Of a stretch of DNA of 64,000 nucleotides, positions 6,748-49,457 are shown piece by piece. A model generated the notes under the pieces. The model did not search any database. It worked only from the letters and a program-made list of their open reading frames with translations, and was not told the origin of the DNA. Position 1 is the stretch's first letter, and each line of letters begins with the position of its first letter. This DNA comes from Flavobacteriales bacterium (lineage in GTDB: Bacteria > Bacteroidota > Bacteroidia > NS11-12g > UBA9320). Made by a program: the position numbers and the translations under genes. The stretch lies in the NCBI GenBank assembly GCA_020635455.1, contig JACJZT010000003.1, positions 522,143-586,142 on the forward strand, given 5' to 3'.

Positions 6748-6777
6748 CCGAATGGTAATCTTCGATCTGTAAAAACA

Positions 6778-7434: not shown

Positions 7435-7674
7435 CCTTCAAATTTAGTAAAAAACTTATCGAATCCTTCCATTCCCTTTTAAACGATGGCACGGGTCAAA
7501 TTCAAACAAATTTATCTTACCAAAACTCAGAAAAAACCTCATCCTTACACCTTGCCACGTCAAGTCATGAAATCTAAATGTTTAAGGATCCCAGAACCAC
7601 GTTTCCTGTTGACCTTTACCTGATAAACATGGTTACCTTTAAAACTATCTGAAATTTTATAGTAAATTAGCCAG

Positions 7675-9498: not shown

Positions 9499-9501
9499 GT
9501 G

Positions 9502-10328: not shown

Positions 10329-10402
10329 CGGGGTGTAGCTCAGCCCGGTAGAGTACACGTCTGGGGGGCGTGTGGTCGCAAGTTCGAATCTTGTCACCCC
10401 GA
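10329..10402 (+). tRNA. tRNA-Pro (anticodon GGG)
   Basis: Manually folded cloverleaf. Acceptor stem CGGGGTG/CACCCCG with the C1:G72 pair and A73 discriminator typical of bacterial tRNA-Pro. Anticodon stem CACGT/GCGTG. Loop CTGGGGG (U33, GGG, G37). T-loop TTCGAAT. No encoded CCA. Confidence 0.85.
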
Positions 10403-10412
10403 CATCGTTAAC

Positions 10413-10450
10413 AAAGGGTTTCAGCAGAAATGTTCGGAACCCTTTTTCTG
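10413..10450 (+). terminator. Putative intrinsic terminator after the tRNA
   Basis: Stem aaagggtt(tc) ... (gg)aacccttt followed by tttctgttt. Confidence 0.35.
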
Positions 10451-10813
10451 TTTATCCAATTTTGGCCTAAAAAAAAAACGAATTCAGTATGTTGAATATA
10501 TTCATACAACATGTCGATTGTTTACTTATGACTATTTATGTAATTGTTATCCAAAAGTGGTTATTTAAATCATAGGAAAGCATCGTTCACTTTACCTACT
10601 GTTCTCTTGACATAGCTATCATTGTTTAAATAAAAGAATCTTTTAACAGAGTAAATAGATTTTTATCTAGTATAGAAACTGAATAGTTATCGGTTGGTTT
10701 AATCCTTTTAATATTGGCTAAACATATTAAGGTTTGATGAATATCTGCACCTGAAATTAACGATATTTTTTATAGCGACATACTTTGGCGTTTTGACATC
10801 ATACTTTTGAAAT

Positions 10814-11941
10814 ATGAAATCAAAAGGTCTGAATTTTATAGATTTCGAAATTAATTCGAAACAAATGGGAAAAAATATAAGCAAAATAGACTTGACAAAG
10901 GTCTTTGGGAAAAGAGAAGCCTATTTAAATGAATTTCAATTATTTGCCACGTATTTTAATGAGATACCAAATTTAATAGATGAACATTATATTGATTGTA
11001 AAAAAGCTTTAAGTTGGTTCTTTAATTTTTTTAAAGCTGAAATTAAAGATTATCATTTTACAAAACGTTTTTATAATGGAAACAAGACAGCTGAATTTGA
11101 CGATAACTTGTTCTTTATTTATGAGGATCTGCTTGTTTATTTTGACCATAATTGCTCAAATGTTCGGTTTCTCTTTCGTAAGACAGCCGGATATAAAGTT
11201 GATAAACTAATCAAAGAAATTAGAAAATTCAAGAAAAGAAAAAAAGTTCAAAATCCTGAAATAAATATCCTAGTGAATTCGGTTTCGGGTATTGACACTA
11301 TGGTAATGAATTTAAACAAGGAAAAACTTAGTATCCATGATAACTACAACGATGACTTTAAAGAAGTACATCAAACCATATTAAAGCGGCTTTCACAAAT
11401 GAATGATAAAGGTTTGGTTCTTTTACATGGCAAACCAGGAACAGGCAAAACTTCCTATATTCGCTATCTTATCTCCACATTAAAGAAGGAAGTTATTTTT
11501 TTGCCGCCCAACATGGCAAATGCTATTACTAATCCTAATCTCATTTCAATTTTGATTAATAATCCTAATTCTGTTTTAGTCATTGAAGATGCCGAAAATA
11601 TAATAATAGATAGGAATAATAACGGTAGCTCACCGGTTTCTTCGCTGCTTAATATCTCGGATGGCTTGCTTTCCGATTGCCTAAACATTCAAATTGTCTG
11701 TTCATTTAATACCGATATCTCAAAGGTAGATACTGCTTTAATGAGAAAAGGCCGGTTGATAGCCAAATATGAATTTAAAGAACTGGAAGTTGAAAAAGCC
11801 AACGTTCTATCAAAAAAATTGGGTTATGATTCAAATTTTTTTGTTCCAATGACTTTGGCAGCTATTTATAATCAGGATGAAAAAGACTTTCAGACTGCAA
11901 AATTAAATTCGATTGGATTTAAAAGCGTAGGTTCGAATTAA
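10814..11941 (+). CDS. AAA-family ATPase (classical AAA module with an unknown N-terminal domain)
   Basis: Walker A (LLHGKPGTGKTS), Walker B (VLVIEDAE) and an SRH-like ALMRKGR. The N-terminal roughly 190 aa are unrecognised. Confidence 0.7.
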   Translation: MKSKGLNFIDFEINSKQMGKNISKIDLTKVFGKREAYLNEFQLFATYFNEIPNLIDEHYIDCKKALSWFFNFFKAEIKDYHFTKRFYNGNKTAEFDDNLFFIYEDLLVYFDHNCSNVRFLFRKTAGYKVDKLIKEIRKFKKRKKVQNPEINILVNSVSGIDTMVMNLNKEKLSIHDNYNDDFKEVHQTILKRLSQMNDKGLVLLHGKPGTGKTSYIRYLISTLKKEVIFLPPNMANAITNPNLISILINNPNSVLVIEDAENIIIDRNNNGSSPVSSLLNISDGLLSDCLNIQIVCSFNTDISKVDTALMRKGRLIAKYEFKELEVEKANVLSKKLGYDSNFFVPMTLAAIYNQDEKDFQTAKLNSIGFKSVGSN

Positions 11942-11943
11942 AT

Positions 11944-12870
11944 ATGTCTAAACGAGGCTATATAACCCGCTACCAGCTTATTCTTAAAAAGCTAAAGACC
12001 AAACCCTATTCCACCTTAGCGGAATTACAAGGTTATGTTGAAAGGCAATATGAATATTTGAAGGAACAGGACGACACTTTAAAAATTGGTTTCTCAAAAC
12101 GTACATTTCAAAGAGATATCCGTGAAATTCGAACCGATTTTGGCATTGATATAGAATACTCCAGAAAAGAGAAAGGCTTTTTTATCAGCTCAAGCGAGAT
12201 GGATTCCACCAATTTTGAACGTAGAATGGAGGCATTTGATACATTTAATGCATTAAATCTTACCAAAGATTTATCTTCCTTTATCCTTTTAGAAAAACGC
12301 CGTCCAAAGGGTACCGATAATTTATATGGGATATTGCATGCAATCAAAAATCGGTATCAAATTAAATTTTCGTACCAAAAATTTTGGGAAGAAGTTGAAA
12401 GTCAACGTAAAGTGGAGCCATACGCGATAAAAGAATTTAAAAACCGCTGGTATATTATGGCTAAGGATACCAAAGACAATAAGGTAAAAAGCTTTGCCAT
12501 TGACCGCTTAGCCAACTTTGAGATAACCAATACATTATTTGAGTACCCGGAAAACCATCAAATAGAAGAAACCTACAAATATTGCTTTGGAATAATAAGT
12601 CCTGAAAGCAATACACCGGAGAAAATAATTTTATCTTTTAATCCTTTTCAAGGAAAATATATTAAAAGCTTACCACTGCATGAAACTCAGGAAGTTATAT
12701 TGGATAATAAACAGGAGTTACGTATTTCTTTAAAGCTATACATCACCTATGATTTGGTTATGGAGTTAATGTCTTATGGCAACAATGTAAAGGTTTTAGA
12801 ACCTAAAACACTTGCAAAAGAGATAAAATTACTTCATGAGAAAGCCTTTAATCAATATGAAAAGTTGTAA
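11944..12870 (+). CDS. HTH-WYL domain transcriptional regulator (BrxR/CapW-like class)
   Basis: N-terminal wHTH pattern (RYQLILKKL ... FSKRTFQRDIREI) and a WYL-domain signature (NRWYIMAKD). 308 aa. The start sits 3 bp after the ATPase stop. Confidence 0.7.
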   Translation: MSKRGYITRYQLILKKLKTKPYSTLAELQGYVERQYEYLKEQDDTLKIGFSKRTFQRDIREIRTDFGIDIEYSRKEKGFFISSSEMDSTNFERRMEAFDTFNALNLTKDLSSFILLEKRRPKGTDNLYGILHAIKNRYQIKFSYQKFWEEVESQRKVEPYAIKEFKNRWYIMAKDTKDNKVKSFAIDRLANFEITNTLFEYPENHQIEETYKYCFGIISPESNTPEKIILSFNPFQGKYIKSLPLHETQEVILDNKQELRISLKLYITYDLVMELMSYGNNVKVLEPKTLAKEIKLLHEKAFNQYEKL

Positions 12871-12880
12871 TTATTAAATC

Positions 12881-14236
12881 ATGCTTTCCAAATCCAAATT
12901 CACCCGTGGTATGAATTGTCCAAAGTCCTTATGGCTTTATGTTAATAAAAAGGAGGAACGGTTAGTGGACAATGCAACTATGGCTATTTTTTCAAGGGGA
13001 TCTAATATTGGTTTGCTTGCCCAACAATATTTTCCGGATGGGAAAATGGCTGTTCTTGAAGATTATCCAGGGTACGAATCAGCTAAAAGAACCCAAGATT
13101 TCATAAACCAAGGGATTGAAACCATATACGAAGCCACATTTATTTATGACAATACCCTTGTAGCTGTTGATATTCTTGTTAAAGAAAATGGGGAGTGGAA
13201 TATGTATGAAGTTAAGAGTACAAACTCTGTAAAATCACAACATATTATCGATGTTGCTGTTCAATATTATGTTGTTAAGGGCAGTGGATTTCCGCTAAAA
13301 AATGCCCATGTTATGCACCTCAATCGCGACTATGTGCGAAAAGGAGCACTCGACATTCGAAAATTATTTACCATTGATAATGGTATGATTCAAGATGAAA
13401 TTGAACCTATACAAGCTCAGATTGCCAAAGATATAAAACGACTTTCAGCCTTAGAAAAAGATACAGCTGAACCCATTATTGAAATGGGTAATCAGTGCAC
13501 TTCCCCTTATACATGTGACTTTTACCAGTATTGTAATTCATTGCTTCCGGTTACCGAAGTGGAAAAAATATTATTGAGCAGTACTCCCTATATCATGGAA
13601 TCTGAGTTAAAGACTTTTGTTAATTCTGTTCAATATCCATTGTGCCATCTTGATTTCGAGACTATAATGCCTGCCATACCGATGTTTGATGAGTCTCGGC
13701 CTTATCAGCAAATCCCATTTCAATATTCGCTTCATATTCAACAAACCCGGAATGGTGAAATAACACATGAATACTATCTTGCTGAAAACAATCCAAATTT
13801 CGATCCTCGCAGAGCTTTTATTGAGAAATTGATTGAGCAAACCAAAAATGCTAAAACAATCTTTGTCTATCATATTCTTTTTGAACGAAGTCGCATTCTT
13901 GAAATGATGCGTGATTTTCCCGAGTACGCAGAAGACTTGGGACTTATAGTAGAAAAATTAGTTGACCTGATAATTCCTTTTAAGAAAAAATATTACCGGA
14001 CAGAAACCATGGGCGGCTCATCCTCCATTAAGAATGTACTACCCGCTTTACACCCTGAATTTTCCTATTCTGCATTGGAAATCAGCAATGGCATGGAAGC
14101 AAGCAATTCCTTTCTGGGTCTATATTATTGTGAAGATGAAGAAACTATTGCCAAAACCCGAGAAAACCTTTTAAAATATTGCCATTTAGATACCTTAGCC
14201 ATGGTAAAGATATTTGAGGTTTTGGAGAGTGTATAA
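12881..14236 (+). CDS. DUF2779-like protein (predicted PD-(D/E)xK / RecB-like nuclease family)
   Basis: The N-terminus (MLSKSKFTRGMNCPKSLWLY) matches the characteristic DUF2779 start, plus a DxD/ExK-like region (YEVKSTN). 451 aa. Confidence 0.5.
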   Translation: MLSKSKFTRGMNCPKSLWLYVNKKEERLVDNATMAIFSRGSNIGLLAQQYFPDGKMAVLEDYPGYESAKRTQDFINQGIETIYEATFIYDNTLVAVDILVKENGEWNMYEVKSTNSVKSQHIIDVAVQYYVVKGSGFPLKNAHVMHLNRDYVRKGALDIRKLFTIDNGMIQDEIEPIQAQIAKDIKRLSALEKDTAEPIIEMGNQCTSPYTCDFYQYCNSLLPVTEVEKILLSSTPYIMESELKTFVNSVQYPLCHLDFETIMPAIPMFDESRPYQQIPFQYSLHIQQTRNGEITHEYYLAENNPNFDPRRAFIEKLIEQTKNAKTIFVYHILFERSRILEMMRDFPEYAEDLGLIVEKLVDLIIPFKKKYYRTETMGGSSSIKNVLPALHPEFSYSALEISNGMEASNSFLGLYYCEDEETIAKTRENLLKYCHLDTLAMVKIFEVLESV

Positions 14237-14247
14237 ATTAAAAACAT

Positions 14248-14979
14248 ATGGAAACTTTACCTAAGGATATAAAACTACTGCGCCACATTAAGTCTATTCT
14301 TGATGAATTAATGAAGGATAGGTATACTCACATAGAAATTCGTTTAAATGAGCTTTACGAATATCTTGAACATGATGACCTATTATTACAAGAATTTCCG
14401 AATGCTCATTCTATTAGTAGGTTTTTAAGAGCACAGCACTTATACGGAATAATGAAACAAATTATCCCTAATTATAGAGTTGATACATCTGATTTCAGAC
14501 GGTTTCAATGGTATTTCTCGAAGGAGGTAACTCCAAAACTGGCAAATACTATACAATCCGAGTCTTTCATAAGTAAAAATATGTACCATAAATATGGGAA
14601 ACAAGTATTAGCATCAAATGGCGAAATGTTAAGATCGGAGCAAGAAAAGTCGATTTATGAATGCTTGTTACAATATACGGAGTTAACCATTCAATATGAT
14701 TTTCCTATAACAATTAAAAGTGAAACCAAAATAGTCGATTTTTTCATTAGAAATAATAAGATGGGAACCAAGTTTATTTGGGAACATTTTGGAATGACGA
14801 ATTCAGTAAATTACATGAATGAAATGACTGATAAAATTGATTGGTACAATTTAAATGGCTATATAATTGATGGCAATGAAAGAAATCTGATCTATACCAT
14901 ATATGAAAATGATAGCTCATTTTATAAGGATATTGATAAATACATCCATTTAATTTTAGATCAATCTGGCCAACTTTAG
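14248..14979 (+). CDS. hypothetical protein
   Basis: 243-aa ORF tightly packed in a co-directional array. No motif recognised. Confidence 0.4.
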   Translation: METLPKDIKLLRHIKSILDELMKDRYTHIEIRLNELYEYLEHDDLLLQEFPNAHSISRFLRAQHLYGIMKQIIPNYRVDTSDFRRFQWYFSKEVTPKLANTIQSESFISKNMYHKYGKQVLASNGEMLRSEQEKSIYECLLQYTELTIQYDFPITIKSETKIVDFFIRNNKMGTKFIWEHFGMTNSVNYMNEMTDKIDWYNLNGYIIDGNERNLIYTIYENDSSFYKDIDKYIHLILDQSGQL

Positions 14980-15057
14980 AAAACAAAAATTACCTGTGAA
15001 CTTATACTGCACAGGTACAAAAGAAATTTGCCTTGAAGTTAAAATGAATAAGCGAAT

Positions 15058-17520
15058 ATGAGAAAAGTAGAATATAGAAATCCGCAAGATGTAATTGCAT
15101 TTAAAGTTTTTGGAATCTTCGCTATTTTTCGGAATAACTCCCGGTTTAGCCATTTTGAGGAACAAGTGCAAATTGTGCTTTTTTTTTTATCACTTTATAA
15201 GGATGGTATAATAAATTCAAAAACACTAGACAAGAACTCTGGCTTTGATGAGTTTAGTAGAACAATTACTGATAATAACATAAAAAGTAAGGTCTATAAA
15301 TCATATTCACTTGTAATTCAAAATCTTGAAGATGGTTTATCTAAAATTGATAATAAAACATTTTTAAGAATTTGCATTCATCTTTTCGAAATAGATAAAG
15401 ATTTCCTGATTGAAAATTTCCCGATAATTTTTGATGATATTTTGTATAGAATAGCCCAATCACAGGGTAGGTCAGCAGGAGAGTTTATTCAACCACTTGA
15501 ATTAACCCGTTTTATGTGTGGTTTGGCTGATTTGGAAAAAGATGCCAAAGTTTTTAATCCCTTTGCAGGCTTAGCTTCGTTTGGGGTTTTCCTCGACCAT
15601 AGTCAGGATTACTTTGGACAAGAGCTAAATCAAAAAACATGGGCTTTAGGTGCTTTGAGACTCATGGCATATGAGAGGCCAGTCAGTTCAATTTTTGTTT
15701 GCGATGATTCGATTTTACATTGGCCAGACCAATCTGAAAAATTCGACGTGATTATGTCTAATCCTCCTTTCGGGATGAGAATTACGCATCATTACAGTGA
15801 AATGGAATCCAACATCAAAACAATTGAACATTTTTTAATTGAAAAAGGTGTTCAATCCTTAAAACAAAACGGTAAGTTAATAGCCCTTTTGCCACAGGGC
15901 TTTCTTTTTAGAGGCATGCAGGATAAGCGTTTAAGGGAACATTTGGTAGAAGAAGATTTAATTGACACCATTATTTCATTGCCTGGTGGATTATTGCTAA
16001 ATACAGGAATTCCATTAATCATCTTAGTTCTTGGTAGAAACAAAAAGTTACGCGGTAAAGTAAAATTCGTTGATGCTAGTAAGTTTGTCATTTCCAAGGG
16101 GCCGAGAGAAAAAGTACTGAATGATTACAGCCTAAACAGCTTTATTCATAGCGATAAGGTAGATGATAATGTTGTTAAGATTGTTTACAATGAACAAGTA
16201 CGTAACAACGATTACAACCTGAGTGTTGCGCGATATTTTCATAAGCAAATTGATGGTGTAAAACTCGGTGATATTCTTGAGTTCGTTAGAGGCCAAAGAG
16301 GCAATCAGCCTGAAACAGGCAAACTAATTCGTATTCGTGATTTAAAAGACGATAAAGTTGATTTTACGCTTGATATTTCCAGCGTTGAAGAAACGGAACT
16401 GAGACGACCTGCCATTCATCTTGTATCGGAATCTTGCCTTCTACTTGCTATGCGTTGGCGGACATTAAAGCCAACGTATTTTGAGTACAAAGGTGAGCCT
16501 ATTTTCCGAAGTCAGGATATTTTATCCTTTAAGGTTAATGAAGCTATTGTAGACAATGCATACTTAATCAACGAGCTTCATGCCGATTATGTGCAGGAAC
16601 AGGTTGAGACATACCGTTTGGGAGCTTCTGTTATTCCCTTTATTCGAAAAGACGATTTGATGGAGGTCGTTATCAAACTTCCTCCAATAGAAGAGCAACG
16701 AGCTAAAATGCAAGGGATATACGAATTGTCTGATAAGATTTCAAAACTTCAAGAAGAGAGAAATGCTTTAGCTCATGGTAAATCAATCAGGCAATTCAAT
16801 GAATTTGCTTCTTTGAAACATACGTTGGGAAGACCAAGACAAAATATTCTTGACTGGTCGGACAACCTTCTCGATTTCTTAAACAAGAAAAAAGAGGGAT
16901 TTGAATCATTGAATAAATCATTTGCCGAATTCTATGACATTGACATTGTTTCGGTTCTCAAAGAAATAAAACGAGATGTAAACTTCATAACAGAAGTGCT
17001 TGAAAAGGGTGAAAATGGACTTGTCCCATCCGAGTACCAAAAACAAATAATTCCGCTATCCGACATTAATAGTATCATCAATGAACTGTCTAATAACGGA
17101 TTTAACTTCAAAATAAAAAAGTTACTATTGAAAGGTGAAAAGCTGAAAGAAAGAGGAATCAATGCCAACAAAACGCTTTTCAAAACATTGCTCGACAACA
17201 TACTTACAAATGCCAACAAGTATGCCTTTGATAAAAAAGCTACGGGTAACGAAGTAATTATTGAATTAACCGAAGTAGATGATTACTTTTCAATGGAAAT
17301 AAGAAATAACGGTAAACCATTTCCGACGAACTACGACAGAGAGAAGTTTATTACCAAATACTCAACAGCCGATTCAAGTAATGGCAGTGGTTTAGGCGGT
17401 TATGATATACACAGAATTGCAAGCCATTTTAATAACCCTGATTGGATATTATCCCTGAACGAAGACCCTTTCTTTTTAGTGAAGTTCAAATTCCAATTCC
17501 CAATTAAATTGATTAACTAA
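15058..17520 (+). CDS. Fusion protein: gamma-class N6-adenine DNA methyltransferase, then an HsdS-like target recognition domain, then a histidine-kinase-type ATPase (HATPase_c)
   Basis: MTase motif I (VFNPFAGLASFG) and motif IV (NPPFG). A TRD-like segment with a PPIEEQ motif. C-terminal GHKL N-box (ILTNANKYAF) and G2 box (GSGLGGYDI). A possible H-box (SLKHTLGRPRQNI). Confidence 0.7.
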   Translation: MRKVEYRNPQDVIAFKVFGIFAIFRNNSRFSHFEEQVQIVLFFLSLYKDGIINSKTLDKNSGFDEFSRTITDNNIKSKVYKSYSLVIQNLEDGLSKIDNKTFLRICIHLFEIDKDFLIENFPIIFDDILYRIAQSQGRSAGEFIQPLELTRFMCGLADLEKDAKVFNPFAGLASFGVFLDHSQDYFGQELNQKTWALGALRLMAYERPVSSIFVCDDSILHWPDQSEKFDVIMSNPPFGMRITHHYSEMESNIKTIEHFLIEKGVQSLKQNGKLIALLPQGFLFRGMQDKRLREHLVEEDLIDTIISLPGGLLLNTGIPLIILVLGRNKKLRGKVKFVDASKFVISKGPREKVLNDYSLNSFIHSDKVDDNVVKIVYNEQVRNNDYNLSVARYFHKQIDGVKLGDILEFVRGQRGNQPETGKLIRIRDLKDDKVDFTLDISSVEETELRRPAIHLVSESCLLLAMRWRTLKPTYFEYKGEPIFRSQDILSFKVNEAIVDNAYLINELHADYVQEQVETYRLGASVIPFIRKDDLMEVVIKLPPIEEQRAKMQGIYELSDKISKLQEERNALAHGKSIRQFNEFASLKHTLGRPRQNILDWSDNLLDFLNKKKEGFESLNKSFAEFYDIDIVSVLKEIKRDVNFITEVLEKGENGLVPSEYQKQIIPLSDINSIINELSNNGFNFKIKKLLLKGEKLKERGINANKTLFKTLLDNILTNANKYAFDKKATGNEVIIELTEVDDYFSMEIRNNGKPFPTNYDREKFITKYSTADSSNGSGLGGYDIHRIASHFNNPDWILSLNEDPFFLVKFKFQFPIKLIN

Positions 17521-17522
17521 CT

Positions 17523-18701: not shown

Positions 18702-18703
18702 CT

Positions 18704-21070: not shown

Positions 21071-21080
21071 CCGCAAGTTT

Positions 21081-23457: not shown

Positions 23458-23470
23458 AAATAAAAGCCAA

Positions 23471-24541: not shown

Positions 24542-24553
24542 TTTAGAAGAAAA

Positions 24554-26353: not shown

Positions 26354-26355
26354 TA

Positions 26356-28581: not shown

Positions 28582-28582
28582 C

Positions 28583-31684: not shown

Positions 31685-31707
31685 TAATTTAAATAATATG
31701 AAGTAAA

Positions 31708-33504: not shown

Positions 33505-33516
33505 TAAAGACATCAG

Positions 33517-34770: not shown

Positions 34771-34781
34771 AAGATAAATAC

Positions 34782-36491: not shown

Positions 36492-37534
36492 TGATTTCAT
36501 TATATGTCAGTCATAAGTTTGTTGAAGAATTTCAGAATAGAACCGATTGGACAGATGAAATAATCTATGATTTTAGAAACCGTTTTCTTAAGAAAATAAG
36601 GGGAATTGAAGTTATAACAGATTCTGATTTTGATGGCATTGAAGATTTGGTTAATGAAAGCGAGTTTTACAGTGATTTATCAGAAATAAATGGAATTGTC
36701 TGTGATAAAACTTGGCTGGATAAATTGAAAGATGAAAGCTTTCTATATAGTGGTAACTTGTCAAAGGTATTTCTTCTTGGAAATGATTTTGACTGCAAAG
36801 CCATGACCTCTGAATATAATCTACTTTTTATCAATAATAGTAACCTTTTAGACTCATGGAATGATGTTAGAACAGACAGAGAAATAAGTGAGATGACGCC
36901 CAGTAATAGCGATGACAACCCATTTAGTTTCCATTCTTGGGAAAAATTAAAACTATTTAAGCATCCTTTTCATGATTTATTGATTTTTGACCTTTATTTA
37001 TTAGGAGATAAAAGCAATCAGAAAATAGACGATAACCTTATTCCCATGTTAAATTGCTTGTCGGAATTTAATCCAAAACAGAAATTTGAACTCACAATCC
37101 TCACAAAGGAATTCTTAAAACCTAAAAACATATATAACCCTGTTGAGAAAATAGAGGAAGTTTTCACAAAAATAGGAATTGAGAAATGTAAACTTATATA
37201 CTATGATGCGCAAAAATCGGAGAGCTTAAAAGAACATGACAGGCAACTATATACCAATTATATGGTATTTGATTGTGGTGCAGGTTGGAATATTTTCAAT
37301 CAAAAGGGTGGTGTTAATACTTCGACTAAAATAATTGGCAGGTCTATTTTTAGAAACGATTCAAAAAACTCATCAGAAAGTGCCCTTCAAAATTTTAAGA
37401 AATATTTTGAAGCGGTTAAGCATAGTAAAATACAAATTGCAATGGCTGGCCAGTTTGATGATAAAGGCAAATTAAAATTCGACTTAATGGATTATCATTA
37501 TCCGCTTGATTTTTACCCCGTTATTTTAAAATAA
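36491..37534 (+). CDS. hypothetical protein, partner of the ABC-type ATPase
   Basis: 347 aa. The start overlaps the ATPase stop (ATGA). No recognisable catalytic motif. Confidence 0.4.
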   Translation: MISLYVSHKFVEEFQNRTDWTDEIIYDFRNRFLKKIRGIEVITDSDFDGIEDLVNESEFYSDLSEINGIVCDKTWLDKLKDESFLYSGNLSKVFLLGNDFDCKAMTSEYNLLFINNSNLLDSWNDVRTDREISEMTPSNSDDNPFSFHSWEKLKLFKHPFHDLLIFDLYLLGDKSNQKIDDNLIPMLNCLSEFNPKQKFELTILTKEFLKPKNIYNPVEKIEEVFTKIGIEKCKLIYYDAQKSESLKEHDRQLYTNYMVFDCGAGWNIFNQKGGVNTSTKIIGRSIFRNDSKNSSESALQNFKKYFEAVKHSKIQIAMAGQFDDKGKLKFDLMDYHYPLDFYPVILK

Positions 37535-37540
37535 TATCCT

Positions 37541-38557
37541 CTAAGCAGAATACAAATTACTGGCTTCCCCCAGCCTGCTTTTGATAGCATTTGTAAGGCC
37601 TTCCGGCGAAATCACCTTCACACTTTCTGCATACGAAAGTATCAATCTTATAAATTCGTAATTAATGATTAATTCCAATTTCACCTCTAAGGTATTCGCA
37701 TCCATCCAATTTGATCGTTGCGAACCATGTATGGGTTTCGATTCGATGTAATTACCGGTTTTTCCGTAAAAATGTAGAATGATATTCTCGGTAGATTGTT
37801 CCATTGGCTTGGTTACGCCGATTATATCCTCAAAATATTCAGACCAATCGATTGAATTATTTTCACGGTAGTTATCCGTAATTTCATCAATAGATTGAAT
37901 TCTGTCCAAGGCGAGATTCCAATCGTATTTATCCATTTCATCATTGTATCCAAAAAGAAACCAGCGGTTATTGTATTGTTTAAGATAGTATGGATGAATG
38001 ACTATTTCAAAAGATTCAACATTTTCAAATGGTTTGTAGTCAATCCTAAGTACCTTTTTGTAATAGATGGCATTATATAATTTGCCGAGGTTCTCAATTC
38101 CTTTCAGGTAGTTGTTGTTGTCAAATTCGATAATAGTATGCTGGTTACCTTCGGTTCCTATTCCTTGCCTCAATTTAGGAATTAGTTCATTAATCCATTC
38201 AAACTGCGGCATACCTTTAAACTGGGACAGTATTTCGAGAGCTGATTTCAGTTGATTAATTTCCACTTCATTTAGTGGCATTTGATTGATAGAAAAATCG
38301 GTATCCACATAACGGTAATAAACTTTTTTACCATCTTTCAATCTTTCCAATTCTATTCCCCAGCCCTCACTGCTTTCCATAAATGAAATATCTGAAAAAA
38401 TTTGCCTTCTGCTTATTCCACCTAAGTCAGGGTCAATTTCGGTCAATGCTTTTTCACATTCTTTCATCAAGTCCTCAATAAAATAGCGTTTACCCGGATT
38501 GCGAAAGCAATTATCGAGAATCTTATATCGAATAAATTGATTTTTATTGGTAGCCAT
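37541..38557 (-). CDS. HTH-WYL domain transcriptional regulator, divergent from the RT operon
   Basis: WYL signature (NRWFLFGYND). The N-terminal wHTH (NQFIRYKILDNCF ... ISRRQIFSDISFM) is paralogous to the regulator at 11944. The ATG at 38557 is preferred because the HTH begins right after it. The ORF track extends the frame to a TTG at 38713. Confidence 0.65.
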   Translation of the reverse strand: MATNKNQFIRYKILDNCFRNPGKRYFIEDLMKECEKALTEIDPDLGGISRRQIFSDISFMESSEGWGIELERLKDGKKVYYRYVDTDFSINQMPLNEVEINQLKSALEILSQFKGMPQFEWINELIPKLRQGIGTEGNQHTIIEFDNNNYLKGIENLGKLYNAIYYKKVLRIDYKPFENVESFEIVIHPYYLKQYNNRWFLFGYNDEMDKYDWNLALDRIQSIDEITDNYRENNSIDWSEYFEDIIGVTKPMEQSTENIILHFYGKTGNYIESKPIHGSQRSNWMDANTLEVKLELIINYEFIRLILSYAESVKVISPEGLTNAIKSRLGEASNLYSA

Positions 38558-38582
38558 TTTTAAAGGATTATCAAAAATAATT

Positions 38583-38611
38583 CTTTCTGTGCAAATAAAT
38601 TGCACAGAAAG
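38583..38611. promoter_or_regulatory. Perfect 12-bp inverted repeat (ctttctgtgcaa-ataaa-ttgcacagaaag), a candidate operator in the WYL-regulator/RT divergent intergenic region
   Basis: Seen directly in the sequence. It lies just upstream of the preferred regulator start. Confidence 0.4.
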
Positions 38612-38857
38612 ATTCTTAATTTGTACCGGTTCTTTGAAAGCCTGTTGTAAGATATTGATTTTTGCCAACTGGAAATTATCGTAAGGTAGTATCAGATCGG
38701 TTGGTGTCTTCAAGGTAACTTGAGGATGAATGTTTAAAAGTAATTACTCTAGCAATTTACTTCTGGTAATGCTTAACTTAAAATTATTAACCTTTAATTT
38801 TTAATACAAGTTCCATAAACAAAGAGTATAGCAACGGGCTTCACAGAACTTAGAATT

Positions 38858-41008
38858 ATGAAGCTTGAAGAGGCGCATATTAAATCAATTAAGTCATCAT
38901 TTGAAAAAATGAAGGATAAAGAGGATTTGCTGCAACTTTTGAACTTTGTTAAACCATTAGTTTATGGTGAAAAGACAATTCCTTTTAAGTTGAAGCAACT
39001 GACTTGGTATGCCAATTCGACCTTGAAAGGCCGTAGATACAAAGAATTTAACATAAAAAAGAAGTCAGGTGAACATAGAACCATAAATTCCCCGGTAAGT
39101 GGTTTAAAAGCCATTCAAAGAATTTTGAATTTTATCCTTCAATGCGTTTATGAGCCTCATAAAGCAGCAATGGGTTTTGTTAATGGTAAATCCATTGTTG
39201 ATAATGCAAGATTACACACTGGCAACCATTATGTTTATAATATTGATCTGAAGGATTTCTTTCCTAGTATTGAGGCAGGCAGAATTTGGTCAAGATTTCA
39301 ACATCCACCTTTCAACCTAAATGATAGGACCAATAGAAAAGAACTTGCAAATATTATTACCTGGCTTTGCTGCTGTGAAATGGAGGTCGAGCGTTTAGAT
39401 GAAAAAAACCAGTGGCATATAGTCAAAAGAAATGTCTTACCTCAGGGAGCACCGACTTCGCCAACCATCAGCAATATTGTATGTCACCAATTGGATTTTT
39501 ATTTATCAGCAGTGGCAAAACGTTTTGGTTTAAAGTACAGTCGTTATGCCGATGACATAACCTATAGTTCTATGCACAATGTTTATCAAAAAGGCAGCGA
39601 ATTTTTGTCGGAAGTGCATAGAATTATATCAGCACAAAGCTTCCATATTAATGTAAATAAAACCCGTTTACAGAAAGCCGGATACCGACAGGAGGTAACC
39701 GGTTTATTAGTAAATGAAAACGTAAATTTACAAACAAGGTATATCAAACAATTGCGAATGTGGTTATATTATTGGGAAAGGTATGGTTACGAAAGAGCCT
39801 CAGGATTCTTTTTACAGCAATATGTTGCCGATAAAGGCCATGTAAAAAATGGCAAACCGGATTTGGCAAATGTAATTTCAGGCAAGCTTGATTACTTGAA
39901 AATGGTTAAGGGATCTGAGAATGATTTGTACTTGAAGTTAAAAAATAGGTTTAATCAACTTACAACTAAAACTATTGACCAGATAGATTTAAGTAAGGTT
40001 AAAAAGATAAGTAAACCTTCAGAAAGAGAATCAATTATTGAAGAGAACATCGATATTAATAATAATAATTCTTATCCAATACTCCATAATCCTCAAAAAA
40101 CTATTACGCTTTTGAAATCCTTTTCGGTCAATGAGAAAGATCTGAAATATTCAACACACAGTTGGGAAGAAGGTAAATACAACAGTTATGAAGAATATAT
40201 TGAAAAAATTAGAATTGAATGGAATGAAATCAAGGACGAATTAAAAAACCAAAGCCCAAGATTATTTGCCAAAATCTCAAATTTTTTATTCAATAATAAG
40301 CTAGGACAAAAAAACGAAGAAGGTTATTACATTTCTTGGGGTGAAAAAAGGTTGAAATTTGGATGGTCATCCGCAAACCTAAAGGACCATATGAGTGATC
40401 CTGGTAACTCCCCATTTTCTTGCCCGATTCCTGATCAAATAAGAGAATTGGACAAAAGACATGACCTCTTATATTTTAAGGATTATGCTGATGTTTTTAA
40501 AAATGAAATAGAGTTCAGAGAAGATTCTAATAATTTCAAAAAAATGATTTTGGAATTATGGGAAAAAGAATTGAGTTATGATTTCAACATAAAGGGTGTT
40601 GAGCAATTTGCTGGTTTCTCATTTTTTACAGATGTTCATCTTGTAAAAGAATCGTTAAGAACTGTATTTCGCGATATGTATAAAGTAAAGCCACAGTTCC
40701 CAACAATAATAATTGAAAAAATAAGCAGCTTTAATGAAAGAGGATACCATTTAATTAAAGTAACACAAAAAGACTCTTTTATCACCAGAGATGTTAACGA
40801 TCCTAAACTAACAAGCCCTTCCGGTAACTTGTTTTCCATCATAAGAAATCTTAAAAATTTATCTGATTACTCTATAGTTAGCAGGTTTAGGGATGGTAGA
40901 AATTATCGACTTAATTATCTAACTTCTACTAAGACTGATTTCATTGAAACTCTTACACAGGATGAAAATACCCTAGGATTTAGTCACGAATTCAAATTTT
41001 ATTTATGA
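38858..41008 (+). CDS. Reverse transcriptase (retron-like RT with a roughly 350-aa C-terminal extension)
   Basis: RT motifs: KKKSGEHRTI (motif 1), NIDLKDFFPSI (motif 2), LPQGAPTSPTISN (motif 4), YADD (motif 5), INVNKTRL (motif 6). The retron-associated NAxxH (DNARLH) and VTG (RQEVTGLLV) motifs are present. 716 aa. Confidence 0.85.
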   Translation: MKLEEAHIKSIKSSFEKMKDKEDLLQLLNFVKPLVYGEKTIPFKLKQLTWYANSTLKGRRYKEFNIKKKSGEHRTINSPVSGLKAIQRILNFILQCVYEPHKAAMGFVNGKSIVDNARLHTGNHYVYNIDLKDFFPSIEAGRIWSRFQHPPFNLNDRTNRKELANIITWLCCCEMEVERLDEKNQWHIVKRNVLPQGAPTSPTISNIVCHQLDFYLSAVAKRFGLKYSRYADDITYSSMHNVYQKGSEFLSEVHRIISAQSFHINVNKTRLQKAGYRQEVTGLLVNENVNLQTRYIKQLRMWLYYWERYGYERASGFFLQQYVADKGHVKNGKPDLANVISGKLDYLKMVKGSENDLYLKLKNRFNQLTTKTIDQIDLSKVKKISKPSERESIIEENIDINNNNSYPILHNPQKTITLLKSFSVNEKDLKYSTHSWEEGKYNSYEEYIEKIRIEWNEIKDELKNQSPRLFAKISNFLFNNKLGQKNEEGYYISWGEKRLKFGWSSANLKDHMSDPGNSPFSCPIPDQIRELDKRHDLLYFKDYADVFKNEIEFREDSNNFKKMILELWEKELSYDFNIKGVEQFAGFSFFTDVHLVKESLRTVFRDMYKVKPQFPTIIIEKISSFNERGYHLIKVTQKDSFITRDVNDPKLTSPSGNLFSIIRNLKNLSDYSIVSRFRDGRNYRLNYLTSTKTDFIETLTQDENTLGFSHEFKFYL

Positions 41009-41646
41009 TGAATTATGCAATATTGATCGAAGATCGAGTACATAGGCAAAAAAAACATTTAGAGGGTAAAATAATTGAATTAAATAATTTTTCCTTTCTA
41101 AAAAATGTATCTGGTGGACAGGATTTCGTGGACATACTCATGAAATTAAACAAAAAAGAATATACCGTCCTTAACGAATACTCAGTAATTATGCTTCATA
41201 GATCCGCATTCGAAACTGAAATTAGAAATGGATTAATGGATTATCTTAAAACAACAAATAAAAAAGTTGTATTCTTTTCAGGAGGAATTTCCGGATGTCA
41301 AATCAGTAAAATTGGGAACCTTGAGTTTTTACTAATAAATGTAAACCAGTTCTATTCTGACAATTTATTATTATTTCTTAAGAATAATGCGACAAACCTC
41401 TTGGAACTTGCTTTTGGGAGCAATTGGCAAACATCAATATTAGTGGATGCTTATGAAAAGTTAATTCTTTATTCTAAATCATTCACTAAACAACCCTGGT
41501 CTTCTATTGAAGTAAATTTGAAGTTAAATACCAAAATTAAAGAAGACTATTTTTTTGAGTTATCTCAAAAGGATTACATATATAAAACTGACCTAGAAGT
41601 AGTATTAAATAAAATGAATTTAGATTTAAATGAAAGAATAGAATGA
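41005..41646 (+). CDS. hypothetical protein (RT operon gene 2)
   Basis: 213 aa. Overlaps the RT stop (ATGA), suggesting translational coupling. Confidence 0.45.
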   Translation: MMNYAILIEDRVHRQKKHLEGKIIELNNFSFLKNVSGGQDFVDILMKLNKKEYTVLNEYSVIMLHRSAFETEIRNGLMDYLKTTNKKVVFFSGGISGCQISKIGNLEFLLINVNQFYSDNLLLFLKNNATNLLELAFGSNWQTSILVDAYEKLILYSKSFTKQPWSSIEVNLKLNTKIKEDYFFELSQKDYIYKTDLEVVLNKMNLDLNERIE

Positions 41647-43463
41647 ATCTGATTTTCCCATTAAAGGATTTTGACATAGGAAATATTGACAATACTTTTT
41701 TCTTCTCCGAAAATATTTCCGAAAATTACGAAAATGATATTGATCAACTATTTCAATCGTTCCTAAATTTGAATAAAAATAAAGAAATAGTTACTTTTAC
41801 CCTCCCGCTTAATCTGTCAAATAATTTCATGGAGTTCAGCGGGTTAATATTTGCACATCATGTTAGATTATCCAGAGAATTAAAATTTTGTAATGCGCCA
41901 ATCATATTTTATGGGGTTCTGGAATTAGAACAAATACTAAGATTAACTTCCTTAGCAAGAATATTGCTTACAGATAATGTTCTATATGTCAATATGGTTA
42001 AATATTCATTCCAGGATATTCAAAGGGCTATTAAAAAGTATCGATTAAAACCGTTTGATTTAAATAGATTTATTGATCAAATTCAATTAATTCCTCCTTC
42101 AAATTACAATTCTCACCATGGTATTGACAATGAATTTGCATTAATCCAATGGTCAAACTATATTGGTTGTTTTGACAGACTTCCTCAGCAGTTTAGAAAA
42201 GAATTTGTAAGTAATTTGTACTTTAAATATTTAAAAGCAAAAAATTCAATTTTTGCATTTGGTGAATATAATCCTATTAAGATTTCGTCCTCAGAAAATA
42301 CTCGGATATTATTAGTAGACGACGAGGCTTACAAGGGCTGGAAGTCTTTTTACGAGTCATTTTTTCATAATTCCAACGTAGAATTTGAAGACTCCGGCAT
42401 AGATTTTAAAAATAAAGATAAAGATGAGCTTATTAAAATGATTGAATCAAAGGTTAGAGAATTCAAACCGCATATCATTTTGCTAGATATCAGATTGCAT
42501 GATAGTGATTTCGAGCAAAATATTTTACCAGAATGCTTAACCGGTATAGAACTTCTAGAGAAAATAAAAACAATAAATAGTGGCATCCAAATTTTAATAA
42601 CAACAGCTTCCAATAAAGCATGGAATTATAACTTGGCCAAACAAAAAGGAGCGTACGATTTTATCATTAAAGATGGATTTGAAAATCCAGAATATTCATT
42701 AAAAAGACTAGTCTTTTCAATAGAAATAGCTGCAAAAAGAGCGATTTTTTTAAAAAACGTACGAAAACGGATAAATTTAATAATTAAGCTTATTAACGAA
42801 AATCCTCAATTCGATTATAATGAAAAAGATGGCTTGGTAAGTCAAATTGAAAATAATAATATATTAAGAAACAAGTTTCTTTCAGACCTCAATTCAGCTT
42901 TTGCATTATTGGATATCAGTTGTGAAGACCCTAACAAGTTAAAATATTATTCATATTGCTATCTACAGTTATTTATTTGTATTGAAGAATTCGTAAATCT
43001 GGAATCTGTTTTCGAAATTGTTGGTGACCAAAGTTTTGTAATCCACAGCCTAAAGAGAATTTGTGTTTCAAAGCGAAGTGATGATACTGTAGAACAAGCA
43101 ATTAAATTTAATAAAAATAATAATGGTAAGTACATAATTGAGAAATGTTCAAAAAAATTCATAAGGCTTGATACGAATTTTTTAGTTTCCTCCATCTTAA
43201 TATTTAAGTACGGAAATGAAAATTCAAGCGAGAATAATTGGACAAAAGTATACAAACAACGAAATGAGATAGTTCATGAAGGATCTATGCCAAATGAAAA
43301 CCAAATATTTGATTTACTCGATTTTATTCGATATTTTTTTAACGCAAAGAATGAAAATAGTGACAATTTAGATAAAGGCTTAATTCCCATTTCAGATGAA
43401 GAAAAATTGCAGTTATTAAAGCAAAAAATTAATACTAGCGAAAATGGTAAAAGCATATTTTAA
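41643..43463 (+). CDS. hypothetical protein with an embedded CheY-like receiver (REC) domain (RT operon gene 3)
   Basis: The central segment (RILLVDDE ... HIILLDIRL ... ILITTAS ... DFIIK) matches the REC D-D/D/T/K pattern. Flanking domains are unrecognised. 606 aa. Confidence 0.55.
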   Translation: MNLIFPLKDFDIGNIDNTFFFSENISENYENDIDQLFQSFLNLNKNKEIVTFTLPLNLSNNFMEFSGLIFAHHVRLSRELKFCNAPIIFYGVLELEQILRLTSLARILLTDNVLYVNMVKYSFQDIQRAIKKYRLKPFDLNRFIDQIQLIPPSNYNSHHGIDNEFALIQWSNYIGCFDRLPQQFRKEFVSNLYFKYLKAKNSIFAFGEYNPIKISSSENTRILLVDDEAYKGWKSFYESFFHNSNVEFEDSGIDFKNKDKDELIKMIESKVREFKPHIILLDIRLHDSDFEQNILPECLTGIELLEKIKTINSGIQILITTASNKAWNYNLAKQKGAYDFIIKDGFENPEYSLKRLVFSIEIAAKRAIFLKNVRKRINLIIKLINENPQFDYNEKDGLVSQIENNNILRNKFLSDLNSAFALLDISCEDPNKLKYYSYCYLQLFICIEEFVNLESVFEIVGDQSFVIHSLKRICVSKRSDDTVEQAIKFNKNNNGKYIIEKCSKKFIRLDTNFLVSSILIFKYGNENSSENNWTKVYKQRNEIVHEGSMPNENQIFDLLDFIRYFFNAKNENSDNLDKGLIPISDEEKLQLLKQKINTSENGKSIF

Positions 43464-44433
43464 AAATATACGGAAGTCAATATTAAATGAATTACTTAAT
43501 GCGAGTAAAAGTGTTAAGGTTGCTGTATACTGGTTCACCAATCATGATCTTTTTGATATGCTATACCAAAAACAATTGAGCGGTGTTCAATGTGAATTAA
43601 TTATACACAATGATTATATTAACAATAGAGAAACGGGTTTGCCCTTCCAAAAGCTCATAGATGCTGGAGGTAAATTTTTTTTTTCGGATGAAGTAAATCC
43701 AATGCACAATAAATTTTGCATAATCGATAACCAGGTTTTAATTAATGGCTCATATAACTGGACCTATTACGCCGAAAGCAAGAACAGAGAGAATATTCTC
43801 ATTATCAAGCAAGAACCAGTAGCTTTAGCATCTTTCAACGAAGAATTTGAAAAATTAGTAGGTCTTATTGAACCTGTTAATAATCTTAACCCAACTACAA
43901 AGTTTGAGGTAGATGAAAACAATTTACTTAGGGCACAGGACTACTTAGCTCATGATATCGTTTTTCAGGCAAAAGCAACCAATAAACCTGAAATTGTACA
44001 ATCAGCATTTGATATAGCCCCTAACAATTTAGAAATACAAAAAATAGCCTATAATTTGGATTTAGTAAAAAAATACAAATTAAAACACTCGGTAGGTGTT
44101 GGAATTGTAAATGACGAGGTAAAATTTATAGCTAAAAAGGGGGCTTCTATCCCAGCTACTTTTACCACTATAGTCAGGACAAGTTATAGTAATCAAACCA
44201 AAAGCGTAACCGATATTGTTTTCGGTGAACAAGAGAAAGCAACAATAAATAGGAAATTGACGGTAATGACTTTAAATGGTCTTCCAAAGAAACCGGCGGG
44301 AAAAGCTGAGGTTAAATTCACTTTTTCAATAGATCTTATGGGTAAAATTAGGATAGAAAAGATGTCTTTGGACAATGGTAAAAAAGAAATCATTAATCAA
44401 AATGCTAAATGGTTGATAGAAGAGAATTTTTAA
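43444..44433 (+). CDS. Phospholipase-D-family (HKD) nuclease-like domain fused to an Hsp70 substrate-binding-domain-like beta-sandwich (RT operon gene 4)
   Basis: HKD motif (HNKFCIIDNQVLINGSYNWT). The C-terminal roughly 100 aa align by eye with DnaK SBD-beta (IAKkgasIPatfttivrTsysNQtksvtdivfGEqe ... LnGlPkkPaGkaevkFTFsIDlmGkiriekmslDnGKkeI). Confidence 0.6.
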   Translation: MVKAYFKNIRKSILNELLNASKSVKVAVYWFTNHDLFDMLYQKQLSGVQCELIIHNDYINNRETGLPFQKLIDAGGKFFFSDEVNPMHNKFCIIDNQVLINGSYNWTYYAESKNRENILIIKQEPVALASFNEEFEKLVGLIEPVNNLNPTTKFEVDENNLLRAQDYLAHDIVFQAKATNKPEIVQSAFDIAPNNLEIQKIAYNLDLVKKYKLKHSVGVGIVNDEVKFIAKKGASIPATFTTIVRTSYSNQTKSVTDIVFGEQEKATINRKLTVMTLNGLPKKPAGKAEVKFTFSIDLMGKIRIEKMSLDNGKKEIINQNAKWLIEENF

Positions 44434-44618
44434 CCATAAACATTTTTCTAAAACCTCAAATAAATTCAATCTATGAAATTTTGAATATTAATAAATTAAA
44501 TAAATGGGAATCTTTCTACTTTTTGTGCGAAAAACTGTGTAAGTACGCCTTTTTCTGTCTGGGTTAAAATTGATTTTCAAATATGTTTGACTGACCTCCT
44601 CTCTAAGAACGAGACCAT

Positions 44619-46850: not shown

Positions 46851-47074
46851 TATTGAAGTAAGAGGTTTATTTCTTTACTGTATTGAAAGTGGGGTCAAAA
46901 TTAGGATTAAATGTTGTTTAGCCGAATTAATATGTGAAATAATTAGGTCAATATCCTTAAACACCAGATTGGGATCCTTGAAAAATTAAGAATATGTGCC
47001 ACATCAGAAACCTTACACAAACCATGTGCTGTACGAATTATTTGTTAGAACTAAATCAGGTTTATAGTGATGGC

Positions 47075-49285: not shown

Positions 49286-49457
49286 TCTTTTTTTTAAAGC
49301 CGTTTTAAAACTTGTTTCTGTTTAAGGGTCTTTGTTTAAGTTCCGGGAACGATTTTTAAAAATGTTCCTTTACCTGCGACAAACCACCAACCGGCCCTTT
49401 TGCTTATGCTTCAGTACCGTTCCTGAACTTTTGGTTTTCCGGGCAAATGCCGGAGTA

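Follow-up and report, generated by a model that had tools for sequence, protein, structure and literature searches.

In Escherichia coli, 18 defence hotspots are located at tRNA genes, and at hotspot #37 of that species 68% of cases lack a detectable mobile element (Hochhauser et al, 2023; PMC10121019). The same paper notes that some cases of the core defence hotspots of Pseudomonas aeruginosa (PMC10250203) likewise have no identifiable mode of mobilisation. Defence genes embedded inside other systems have been described (Payne et al, 2024; bioRxiv 10.1101/2024.01.29.577857), and the TgvAB system of VPI-2 in Vibrio cholerae, which is embedded in a Type I restriction-modification (R-M) system, has been validated experimentally (PMC11411939). 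Here we analyse a defence island in 64,000 nucleotides of DNA from a Flavobacteriales bacterium (assembly GCA_020635455.1, contig JACJZT010000003.1, positions 522,143-586,142 of the forward strand), a stretch that we call the window and by whose coordinates all positions are given. The island spans 10.46-44.6 kb of the window (~34 kb), starts directly past a tRNA-Pro(GGG) gene, and carries defence-type domains in nearly every gene. We conclude, with good though not full confidence, that the locus is a defence hotspot of the chromosome whose contents arrived through horizontal transfer and cassette exchange, and that its island, a nested mosaic made up of about six modules, is not currently self-mobile. 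Comparison with other genomes shows a hotspot placed after the tRNA terminator, contents of horizontal origin, modular exchange at gene-precise junctions, and no self-mobility functions.

We compared the site with the nine closest loci from a scan for RecR, taken at one genome per species (L002-L010). RecR of these relatives is 79-85% identical to that of the window, and their core DNA is ~70-73% identical at the nucleotide level. tRNA-Pro(GGG) lies beside recR in all nine, except for one contig that ends too early, and its sequence is identical in seven genomes (the window, L002-L006 and L008). The left flank is alike gene for gene in the window, L002 and L003, and divergence is total from ~55 nt after the tRNA. 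Similarity to relatives stops at ~10455-10465, past the tRNA terminator (a blastn alignment to L006 reaches 10463), which defines the left junction of the island. The anchor of the site and the genes that follow it in the relatives are:

10329-10403, + strand: tRNA-Pro(GGG), left anchor of the hotspot and only tRNA gene in the window (ARAGORN; Rfam tRNA, 59 bits)
10416-10449, + strand: tRNA terminator, hairpin and T-run (sequence; alignment with nine relatives)
L002, after the tRNA: helix-turn-helix (HTH) gene and split HipA (HipBA)
L003, after the tRNA: at least 9.8 kb co-directional with the tRNA, with HTH, AbiEi/AbiEii, HNH, HIT, DnaB_C helicase and a retron-clade reverse transcriptase (RT)
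L004, L005, L006 and L008, after the tRNA: tmk, then a homolog of the window gene at 50075, followed in L005 by FtsX and BacA
L007 and L010, after the tRNA: lipoprotein

Five different contents are found downstream of recR and tRNA-Pro, and the right-hand marker, a protein sorted by the type IX secretion system (T9SS), is present in four of the nine relatives; what lies between the conserved markers varies from genome to genome. With the exception of a 34%-identical RT in L003, none of the 22 island proteins is encoded at the site in the nine relatives. Exact matches to RecR, the permease to the right of the island and the island's AAA protein came from the same strain only (SRR12358675 and SRR12358676). 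Two further observations concern the site itself. At 6033-6069 of L006, a degenerate second tRNA-Pro 3' end (34/38 nt) lies ~100 nt past the intact tRNA and before tmk, and this copy is the scar of an old integrase-type event, integration followed by loss, at the tRNA. In L002, ~4.9 kb of extra DNA (4953-9844) separates the genes for M2 peptidase and DUF4290, which are 240 bp apart in the window, marking a second variable spot near recR.

The island shares deviant composition and patchy distribution with tRNA-integrated islands, but its junction does not fall inside the tRNA gene, as both the tRNA and its terminator are conserved. Since the variable DNA begins after the terminator, there is no need to invoke an integrase that acted at the 3' end of the tRNA. 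No window ORF of at least 100 aa carries a Phage_integrase, Resolvase or Recombinase domain in Pfam searches, and the 99.3% coding density over 10814-37534 leaves no space there for a sizeable pseudogene or integrase. The 3' half of the tRNA has no exact repeat of 12 nt or longer in the window; the best ungapped match in the window to its last 38 nt (22/38) equals that of shuffled sequences (mean 21.5, maximum 23); the Rfam covariance model finds no partial tRNA in 44.3-50.2 kb (E<=10); and no long direct or inverted repeats, nor ends resembling those of miniature inverted-repeat transposable elements, border the island. These results bear out an earlier note on this DNA, which had reported neither a recombinase nor a repeat of the tRNA 3' end. 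Because the integrase, att-repeat and junction-in-tRNA tests all came out negative, we do not class the island as an integrative element. An 11-mer, CCTTTTTCTGT, present at 10441 and 44548, was considered as an att core and rejected: it has E = 1.7, and its left copy lies within the conserved tRNA terminator.

The island is tightly packed and compositionally distinct. It contains 22 ORFs of at least 200 aa in 10814-44433: 17 consecutive ones on the + strand (10814-37534), then one WYL gene on the - strand, then four on the + strand. Accordingly, 21 of the 22 are on the same strand as tRNA-Pro(GGG), so that the co-directional array described in the earlier note stands, while its figure of about 25 consecutive plus-strand genes does not. 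The 17-gene run of 26.7 kb, with the coding density given above, has gaps of at most 78 nt, mostly 2-13 nt. GC content is 0.330 in 10404-44618, compared with 0.396 in the left flank, 0.401 in 44619-49900 and 0.384 in the right flank; per gene, GC is 0.326 in the island vs 0.396 in the flanks (Mann-Whitney p=7e-7), and GC3 is 0.294 vs 0.399 (p=2e-6). Once GC3 is set aside, island and flanks show no difference in their choice of synonymous codons (p=0.11). The AT-richness relative to flanking housekeeping genes that had been noticed by eye is therefore real (0.330 vs 0.396-0.401, per-gene p ~1e-6). The same note had reasoned that a GC profile like that of the flanks, together with the same gene array in all close relatives at this position, would indicate an ancient stable island; the GC profile differs, and the array is absent from the site in nine relatives.

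Within the island, GC content is uneven: hsdM (0.399) and hsdR (0.387) are flank-like, whereas the genes between hsdS and hsdR lie at 0.26-0.30. This alternation of low- and high-GC modules recurs in other hosts (L168 and L170, described below), which makes AT-richness a property of the gene pool and not a clock. For the same reason, we dropped the argument that low-GC cargo was recently inserted into a resident R-M system as a means of dating.

We took an inventory of domains from Pfam, PADLOC and NCBIfam searches of the window ORFs. Several unrelated defence systems, about seven in number, are clustered within the 34 kb: a Type I R-M system, McrBC, a GmrSD-type pair, a retron-clade RT operon, an ABC-ATPase pair, and the PADLOC candidates PDC-S02 and PDC-S21. 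All domains named from the translations in the earlier note (AAA/WYL/DUF2779, methyltransferase-histidine kinase, Type I R-M with cargo, McrBC, ABC-ATPase pair, divergent WYL and RT operon) were recovered by Pfam or PADLOC. The proteins of 243, 347, 213 and 133 aa had no match in NCBIfam and relaxed Pfam searches. Promoter and terminator scans gave counts equal to those of shuffled sequences, the sigma-70 model being unsuited to Bacteroidota, and are uninformative on operon limits. The first five modules, in order, are:

10814-11941, + strand: Module 1, AAA ATPase (Pfam, PADLOC)
11944-12870, + strand: Module 1, WYL/WCX protein (Pfam, PADLOC)
12881-14236, + strand: Module 1, DUF2779 protein with a weak Cas4-like match (Pfam, PADLOC)
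14248-14979, + strand: Module 2, 243-aa protein
15058-17520, + strand: Module 2, fusion of N6-methyltransferase (MTase), target-recognition domain and HATPase_c, 820 aa (Pfam)
17523-18701, + strand: Module 2, OB/S1-CSD protein, 392 aa (Pfam)
18704-21070, + strand: Module 3, hsdM (Pfam HsdM_N and N6_Mtase; PADLOC MTase_I, 877 bits)
21081-22166, + strand: Module 3, DUF1016_N and YhcG PD-(D/E)xK nuclease (PDC-S02), embedded between hsdM and hsdS (Pfam, PADLOC)
22150-23457, + strand: Module 3, hsdS (Pfam, PADLOC)
23471-24541, + strand: Module 3, embedded DUF4917 / SIR2_2-like protein (PDC-S21), GC 0.301 (Pfam, PADLOC)
24554-26353, + strand: Module 3, embedded DUF262+DUF1524 protein, 599 aa (Pfam GmrSD_N / GmrSD_C)
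26356-28581, + strand: Module 3, embedded DUF262-only protein (Pfam GmrSD_N)
28583-31684, + strand: Module 3, hsdR, 1033 aa (Pfam HSDR_N / ResIII / T1R_D3-like)
31708-34770, + strand: Module 4, McrB (AAA_5, PF07728), then McrC (PF10117, E = 4e-62) (Pfam)
34782-37534, + strand: Module 5, AAA_15 / AAA_21 / DUF3696 ABC-type ATPase and 347-aa partner (Pfam, PADLOC)

Island modules are 65-96% identical in protein sequence to copies in other Bacteroidota orders, at loci without a tRNA within 10 kb (comparison loci L164-L176). For hsdM, more than 120 clusters are 88-96% identical, including Saprospiraceae and Chitinophagaceae. In a metagenome contig (L168), hsdM and hsdR are both 96% identical at the protein level and hsdR is 92% identical at the nucleotide level; in Saprospiraceae (L169) and Chitinophagaceae (L170), hsdM is 89-90% and hsdR 88-90% identical at the protein level, with nucleotide identity of ~80%. 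RecR of Saprospiraceae and Chitinophagaceae, by comparison, is only 53-56% identical to that of the window. The R-M genes are thus far more alike between the window and other orders than core genes are between the window and its nearest relatives, which argues for horizontal transfer. Together with the absence of the island genes from the site in relatives, these identities strongly support the proposal, made in the earlier note from the proximity to a tRNA, that the region was acquired horizontally. A megablast search with 14175-23457 against plasmids and phages returned no match; viral contigs carry hsdM relatives at no more than 70% identity.

Comparison of L168, L169 and L170 with the window locates the junctions at which cargo differs. 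L168 is collinear with window 14175-21059 at 84.6% nucleotide identity, and its hsdR is followed directly by the WYL gene on the - strand and the first part of the RT gene (window 37620-39269, 73.6% nucleotide identity). Relative to L168, the window has YhcG, DUF4917, McrBC and the ATPase pair in addition; L168 carries another McrBC at the place of the window's AAA-WYL-DUF2779 genes and still has 60 nt of the DUF2779 3' end as a remnant. The order in L170 is WYL ... AAA, DUF2779, MTase-HATPase, OB, hsdM, hsdS, two DUF262 genes, hsdR and McrB, and only its R-M genes are close to those of the window (89-90%), the remainder being 24-41% identical. L169 has hsdM, hsdS and hsdR contiguous and free of cargo (hsdS TGA, 2 nt, hsdR ATG); they lie in an element that also carries HTH_17 genes and encodes a DUF3987 primase and a tyrosine integrase. 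YhcG is missing from the hsdM/hsdS junction in all three loci, where the hsdM stop overlaps the hsdS start, and the DUF4917 gene has no counterpart in any of them. In the slot between hsdS and hsdR, L168, L170 and the window each have a different DUF262 pair, with spacers of 1-13 nt or overlapping stop and start codons, and L169 has none. Cargo breakpoints fall at gene ends or within ~80 nt of them and are free of repeats. In hsdS, the central and C-terminal segments (22642-22871 and 23318-23457) are ~84-92% identical in nucleotides to L168-L170, while the target-recognition domains differ. Overall, these comparisons show that the island modules circulate among Bacteroidota, and that a conserved backbone of module 2, hsdMSR, WYL and RT start recurs elsewhere, its cargo changing at junctions that are gene-precise and the same from locus to locus.

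The R-M genes of the window are all full length. The hsdR ORF had been listed from 28403, which made it overlap the preceding gene by 179 nt; its real start is Met61 at 28583, one nucleotide past the upstream stop, and gives a protein of 1033 aa as in L168. The hsdR of L169 is frameshifted and that of the window intact. The two DUF262 proteins, which resemble TgvAB and have a GC content of 0.26-0.28, carry one DGQQR motif each, at residues 78 and 124, and the 599-aa protein has an EHIFP...N His-Me motif.

Several of the other modules also have counterparts elsewhere. The AAA protein of Module 1 is 60% identical to a counterpart in L173-L175, and L170 has AAA-DUF2779 genes at the corresponding position with 36-37% identity to Module 1. 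The MTase-HATPase fusion and the OB protein of Module 2 form a strongly conserved pair, with 69-82% identity across Bacteroidota families and more than 120 clusters (for the 392-aa OB protein, more than 120 clusters at 75-83% identity). This pair lies directly beside a Type I R-M system in 6/6 loci seen (window, L164, L166, L167, L168 and L170), including L164, L166 and L167, which were picked without reference to R-M and in which the pair (69-81% identical) adjoins unrelated R-M systems (hsdM ~22% identical). Judging from this neighbourhood, the pair could depend functionally on Type I R-M. In L164, L165 and L166, the pair is preceded by a WYL gene 42-44% identical to the - strand WYL of the window (37541). 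Module 5 was compared with ABC-ATPase systems of the Menshen, PARIS and Gabija types: its ATPase matches NsnB (8.6e-48) and AriA (2.9e-27) in PADLOC; the 347-aa partner has no match in Pfam, PADLOC or NCBIfam.

The last part of the island comprises a divergent regulator, an intergenic region with two candidate elements, and the RT operon:

37541-38557, - strand: WYL/WCX regulator, 338 aa, divergent from the RT operon (Pfam)
38582-38612: perfect palindrome with a 13-bp stem; its core, TGTGCA-N8-TGCACA, is invariant in five loci
38629-38845, + strand: candidate retron-type non-coding RNA (ncRNA), ~215 nt, with a long-range closing helix, two conserved 5' hairpins and a variable middle
38858-41008, + strand: Module 6, fusion of RT and HisKin-conflict domains (Pfam, PADLOC)
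41005-41646, + strand: Module 6, 213-aa protein
41643-43463, + strand: Module 6, iREC and REC protein (Pfam, PADLOC)
43444-44433, + strand: Module 6, phospholipase D (PLD) nuclease and Hsp70-SBD-like protein (Pfam, PADLOC)

The WYL ORF had been listed from a TTG at 38713; its real start is the ATG at 38557, which is conserved in homologs of 336-338 aa. The protein shares 76% identity with its homolog in L168 and 70% with those in L171 and L173-L175. Among PADLOC's RT models, those for retron types XI, XII and I-C are nearest to the RT (E = 1e-88 to 1e-99 over the RT domain), and no retron-type model matched Module 6 beyond that domain. L171-L176 contain the RT operon again, as a five-gene unit that is 33-73% identical and usually leads into a TOTE system. 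In the literature on iREC and HisKin-conflict, we found no paper describing the RT-kinase operon.

The ~300-nt region between the WYL and RT genes (38558-38857) is better conserved than its neighbouring genes. We compared it across five loci (window 38558-38857, L168:20984-21285, L171:4362-4743, L173:4838-5116 and L176:4793-5075). The palindrome is probably an operator. The candidate ncRNA is closed by the inverted repeats AAGCCUGUUGU and GCAACGGGCUU, and a C-G to U-A exchange in its closing helix is compensatory. From an alignment of only five sequences, RNAalifold gives a structure of 60 pairs, of which 12 show compensatory changes, and the fold of the window sequence has a minimum free energy of -61.2 kcal/mol (z = -4.1). 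The element matches no Rfam family. By its predicted fold and position, it looks like a retron msr-msd for the RT-HisKin fusion.

The downstream neighbours of the RT operon in other hosts follow a fixed order. In L173, L174 and L176 (~11000-18600), the RT-HisKin operon leads into TOTE (PIF1/TBP-TOTE helicase and DUF7017/S1CSD-TOTE) and then DnaB_C. A small RT follows DnaB_C in L173 and L174, and this DnaB_C and RT pair has 51-62% identity with its counterpart in the L003 hotspot (L003:1383-3753); the L176 array ends with HTH and HipA, like the hotspot of L002. This gene order suggests a common pool of modules with a preferred arrangement.

To the left, the flank holds the housekeeping genes for M2 peptidase and recR; to the right, the genes beyond the island are those for an SLC12-like permease, SulP, a T9SS-sorted Ig/PKD protein, FtsX and BacA. 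The right boundary and its first neighbours are:

44434-44618: non-coding compositional right junction, 186 bp, with no tRNA fragment
44619-49859, - strand: SLC12-like amino-acid permease, SulP transporter and 133-aa ORF (49458-49859) (Pfam)
50075-52777, + strand: 900-aa Ig_7 / PKD / T9SS-sorted protein, at which shared gene order resumes (Pfam)

By composition, the island ends at 44.4-44.6 kb, where the earlier note had also ended it (~44.4 kb, before an opposite-strand permease), but this is an end by composition only, as the gene order shared with L004, L005, L006 and L008 returns only at 50075. The variable segment may therefore be ~39.5 kb long (10.46-49.9 kb), taking in the permease, SulP and the 133-aa ORF and displacing tmk; we regard this as a serious possibility, though one on which the evidence leans somewhat the other way. 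In those four relatives tmk comes first after the tRNA and the homolog of the 50075 gene second, with no permease or SulP between, and tmk is lacking in the window. The 133-aa ORF is AT-rich like the island (GC 0.333), and the closest homologs of the permease (77%, in metagenomes) share no neighbours with the window and do not fix the boundary. The permease and SulP, however, are transporters on the opposite strand with flank-like GC and GC3 (0.42 / 0.45 and 0.40 / 0.40); the tmk-type relatives belong to a more distant sub-clade that also lacks the left-flank gene order of the window; and the two closest relatives, L002 and L003, are uninformative on the right side.

The same comparisons bear on how the island arose and on whether it is real. 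Entry of a single island, similar to an integrative and mobilisable or integrative and conjugative element, at tRNA-Pro through a tyrosine integrase, with later loss of the integrase and both att sites, would account for the position beside a tRNA and the distinct composition; tRNA loci are classical integration sites and host 18 defence hotspots in E. coli (PMC10121019), L006 carries its degenerate tRNA 3' copy, and the R-M backbone resides in an integrase-bearing element in L169. We nevertheless consider it improbable. There is no recombinase in the window, and no tRNA fragment even at shuffle-level sensitivity; the tRNA is the same as in relatives with no defence cargo after it, and divergence starts past the terminator; and at the same junction L002 and L003 carry other cargo, with no integrase visible within 2-10 kb. 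Moreover, GC ranges from 0.26 to 0.40 and neighbouring genes are 24% to 96% identical to other genomes, an internal heterogeneity that argues for several events. An ancient island, inherited vertically and stable in the lineage, would suit the lack of mobility genes and att sites and a codon preference that resembles the flanks apart from GC3, but the island is missing from nine relatives that keep the flanking genes, and its R-M genes are far nearer to other orders than core genes are to the nearest relatives; we give this account very little weight. Hardly any credence is due, either, to a metagenome mis-assembly joining two organisms via the identical 75-nt tRNA. Two independent short-read contigs of the same strain (L001 and L083) do end inside the tRNA at ~10355, one from each side, and the tRNA is identical across several genera; the likely cause of these ends is that co-occurring relatives with an identical tRNA branch the assembly graph. 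Yet both flanks of the 39.5-kb segment are neighbours in L005, where the T9SS protein, FtsX and BacA, to which the contig returns after 39.5 kb, adjoin recR and tRNA-Pro, and L002, L003 and L006 have a similar terminator behind their tRNA. Independent Logan contigs also reproduce the internal and right-hand linkages, from the RT-operon genes to PLD-Hsp70, the permease and SulP. The return to the genes that neighbour the site in L005 and the independently reproduced right-hand linkage make a chimera unlikely.

A transposon-like element lies well outside the island. An IS4-type DDE transposase (1363-2877), 7.5 kb to its left, is the only transposase in the window and has 23-nt terminal inverted repeats at 1240-1262 and 2876-2898. 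A perfect 238-nt direct repeat (1008-1245 and 2892-3129), far above the normal length of a target-site duplication, brackets this element and may be an assembly artefact or an unusual duplication.

For the hotspot filled by transfer and exchange, we propose that cassettes would be gained or swapped by homologous recombination in conserved flanking genes, namely recR and the tRNA on the chromosome and hsdM, hsdS and hsdR within the island, and that the R-M backbone may occasionally be delivered on integrase-bearing elements, as in L169. The domain families predict layered immunity. The Type I R-M system would attack unmodified DNA, and McrBC and the GmrSD-type (TgvAB-like) pair would attack modified DNA; the ATPase, SIR2-like, PLD and retron modules may serve as sensors or abortive-infection back-ups. 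The PD-(D/E)xK, SIR2-like, ABC-ATPase and PLD modules could be abortive or nuclease effectors, with the WYL proteins as candidate regulators. A more far-reaching proposal, which we consider speculative and rather unlikely, is that the near-gapless co-directional array did not accumulate by chance and represents a long-lived "super-island" of Bacteroidota with a conserved module order: AAA/WYL/DUF2779, MTase-GHKL and OB, Type I R-M together with a DUF262 pair, WYL and the retron-like RT-kinase operon, with TOTE and DnaB_C+RT following elsewhere. As part of the same joint proposal, the highly conserved hsdM, hsdS and hsdR would act as portable homology arms for cassette swaps between orders without a site-specific recombinase, and the MTase-GHKL/OB pair would be tied to the adjacent Type I R-M.

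Several points weigh against the hotspot account. The relatives are only ~70-73% identical in core genes at the nucleotide level, so that some of the difference at the site could be ordinary loss of gene order, and tmk, which comes next after the tRNA in four of them, is absent from the window. The right boundary is uncertain and lies between 44.6 and 49.9 kb. The low GC of the modules marks a gene pool and not an arrival time. Finally, the comparison covered ~12 loci, several of them chosen through homology to the island itself, and the proposed recombination in the hsd genes is deduced from identity breakpoints.

For the question of how defence islands form and move without mobility genes, the locus offers a clean comparison set up by nature. 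A single R-M backbone, with nucleotide identity of 80-92% across Bacteroidota orders, occurs with no cargo or with three cargo sets at identical stop/start junctions, and cassette exchange driven by recombination is directly testable here, in a phylum whose defence islands are little studied. The island also gathers widespread modules that are uncharacterised: the MTase-GHKL fusion with its OB partner, AAA-WYL-DUF2779, the RT-kinase operon with its candidate ncRNA, and the ABC-type ATPase with its orphan partner.

Compared with known systems, Module 6 resembles retrons in its RT, nearest to types XI, XII and I-C, and in the candidate structured RNA with closing inverted repeats just upstream; it differs in having a GHKL / His-kinase-like domain joined to the RT, with iREC/REC and PLD-Hsp70-like genes further along the operon. 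The R-M system resembles that of VPI-2 with its embedded TgvAB, with DUF262-only and DUF262+DUF1524 genes between hsdS and hsdR and the DGQQR and His-Me motifs intact, and the combination is predicted to cover both unmodified and modified phage DNA. This likeness rests on domains and motifs; in the window and L170 the order of the pair is reversed, with the TgvB-like gene first, while L168 has the VPI-2 order, and two further genes (YhcG/PDC-S02 and DUF4917/PDC-S21) are embedded in the window. The immigration control region of E. coli K-12, hsdRMS, mrr and mcrBC, similarly places a Type I R-M system beside McrBC in a variable chromosomal segment, but the island of the window is far larger and more diverse and lies in another phylum at another locus. 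Like tRNA-integrated islands and integrative mobilisable elements, it is tRNA-adjacent, compositionally deviant, variably present and made of accessory cargo; unlike them, it yielded no integrase and no direct repeats from the tRNA 3' end when these were looked for. The closest parallel in kind is with the hotspots of E. coli and P. aeruginosa, which also hold very different defence sets per genome at a fixed site between conserved genes. It differs from these in that the variable DNA starts after the tRNA terminator, with no integrase and mostly as one near-gapless co-directional array, and in that the host is a freshwater Bacteroidota metagenome-assembled genome compared across species and genera and not within a species. 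Overall, the locus is a good but ordinary example of a defence island, a phenomenon that is expected rather than surprising.

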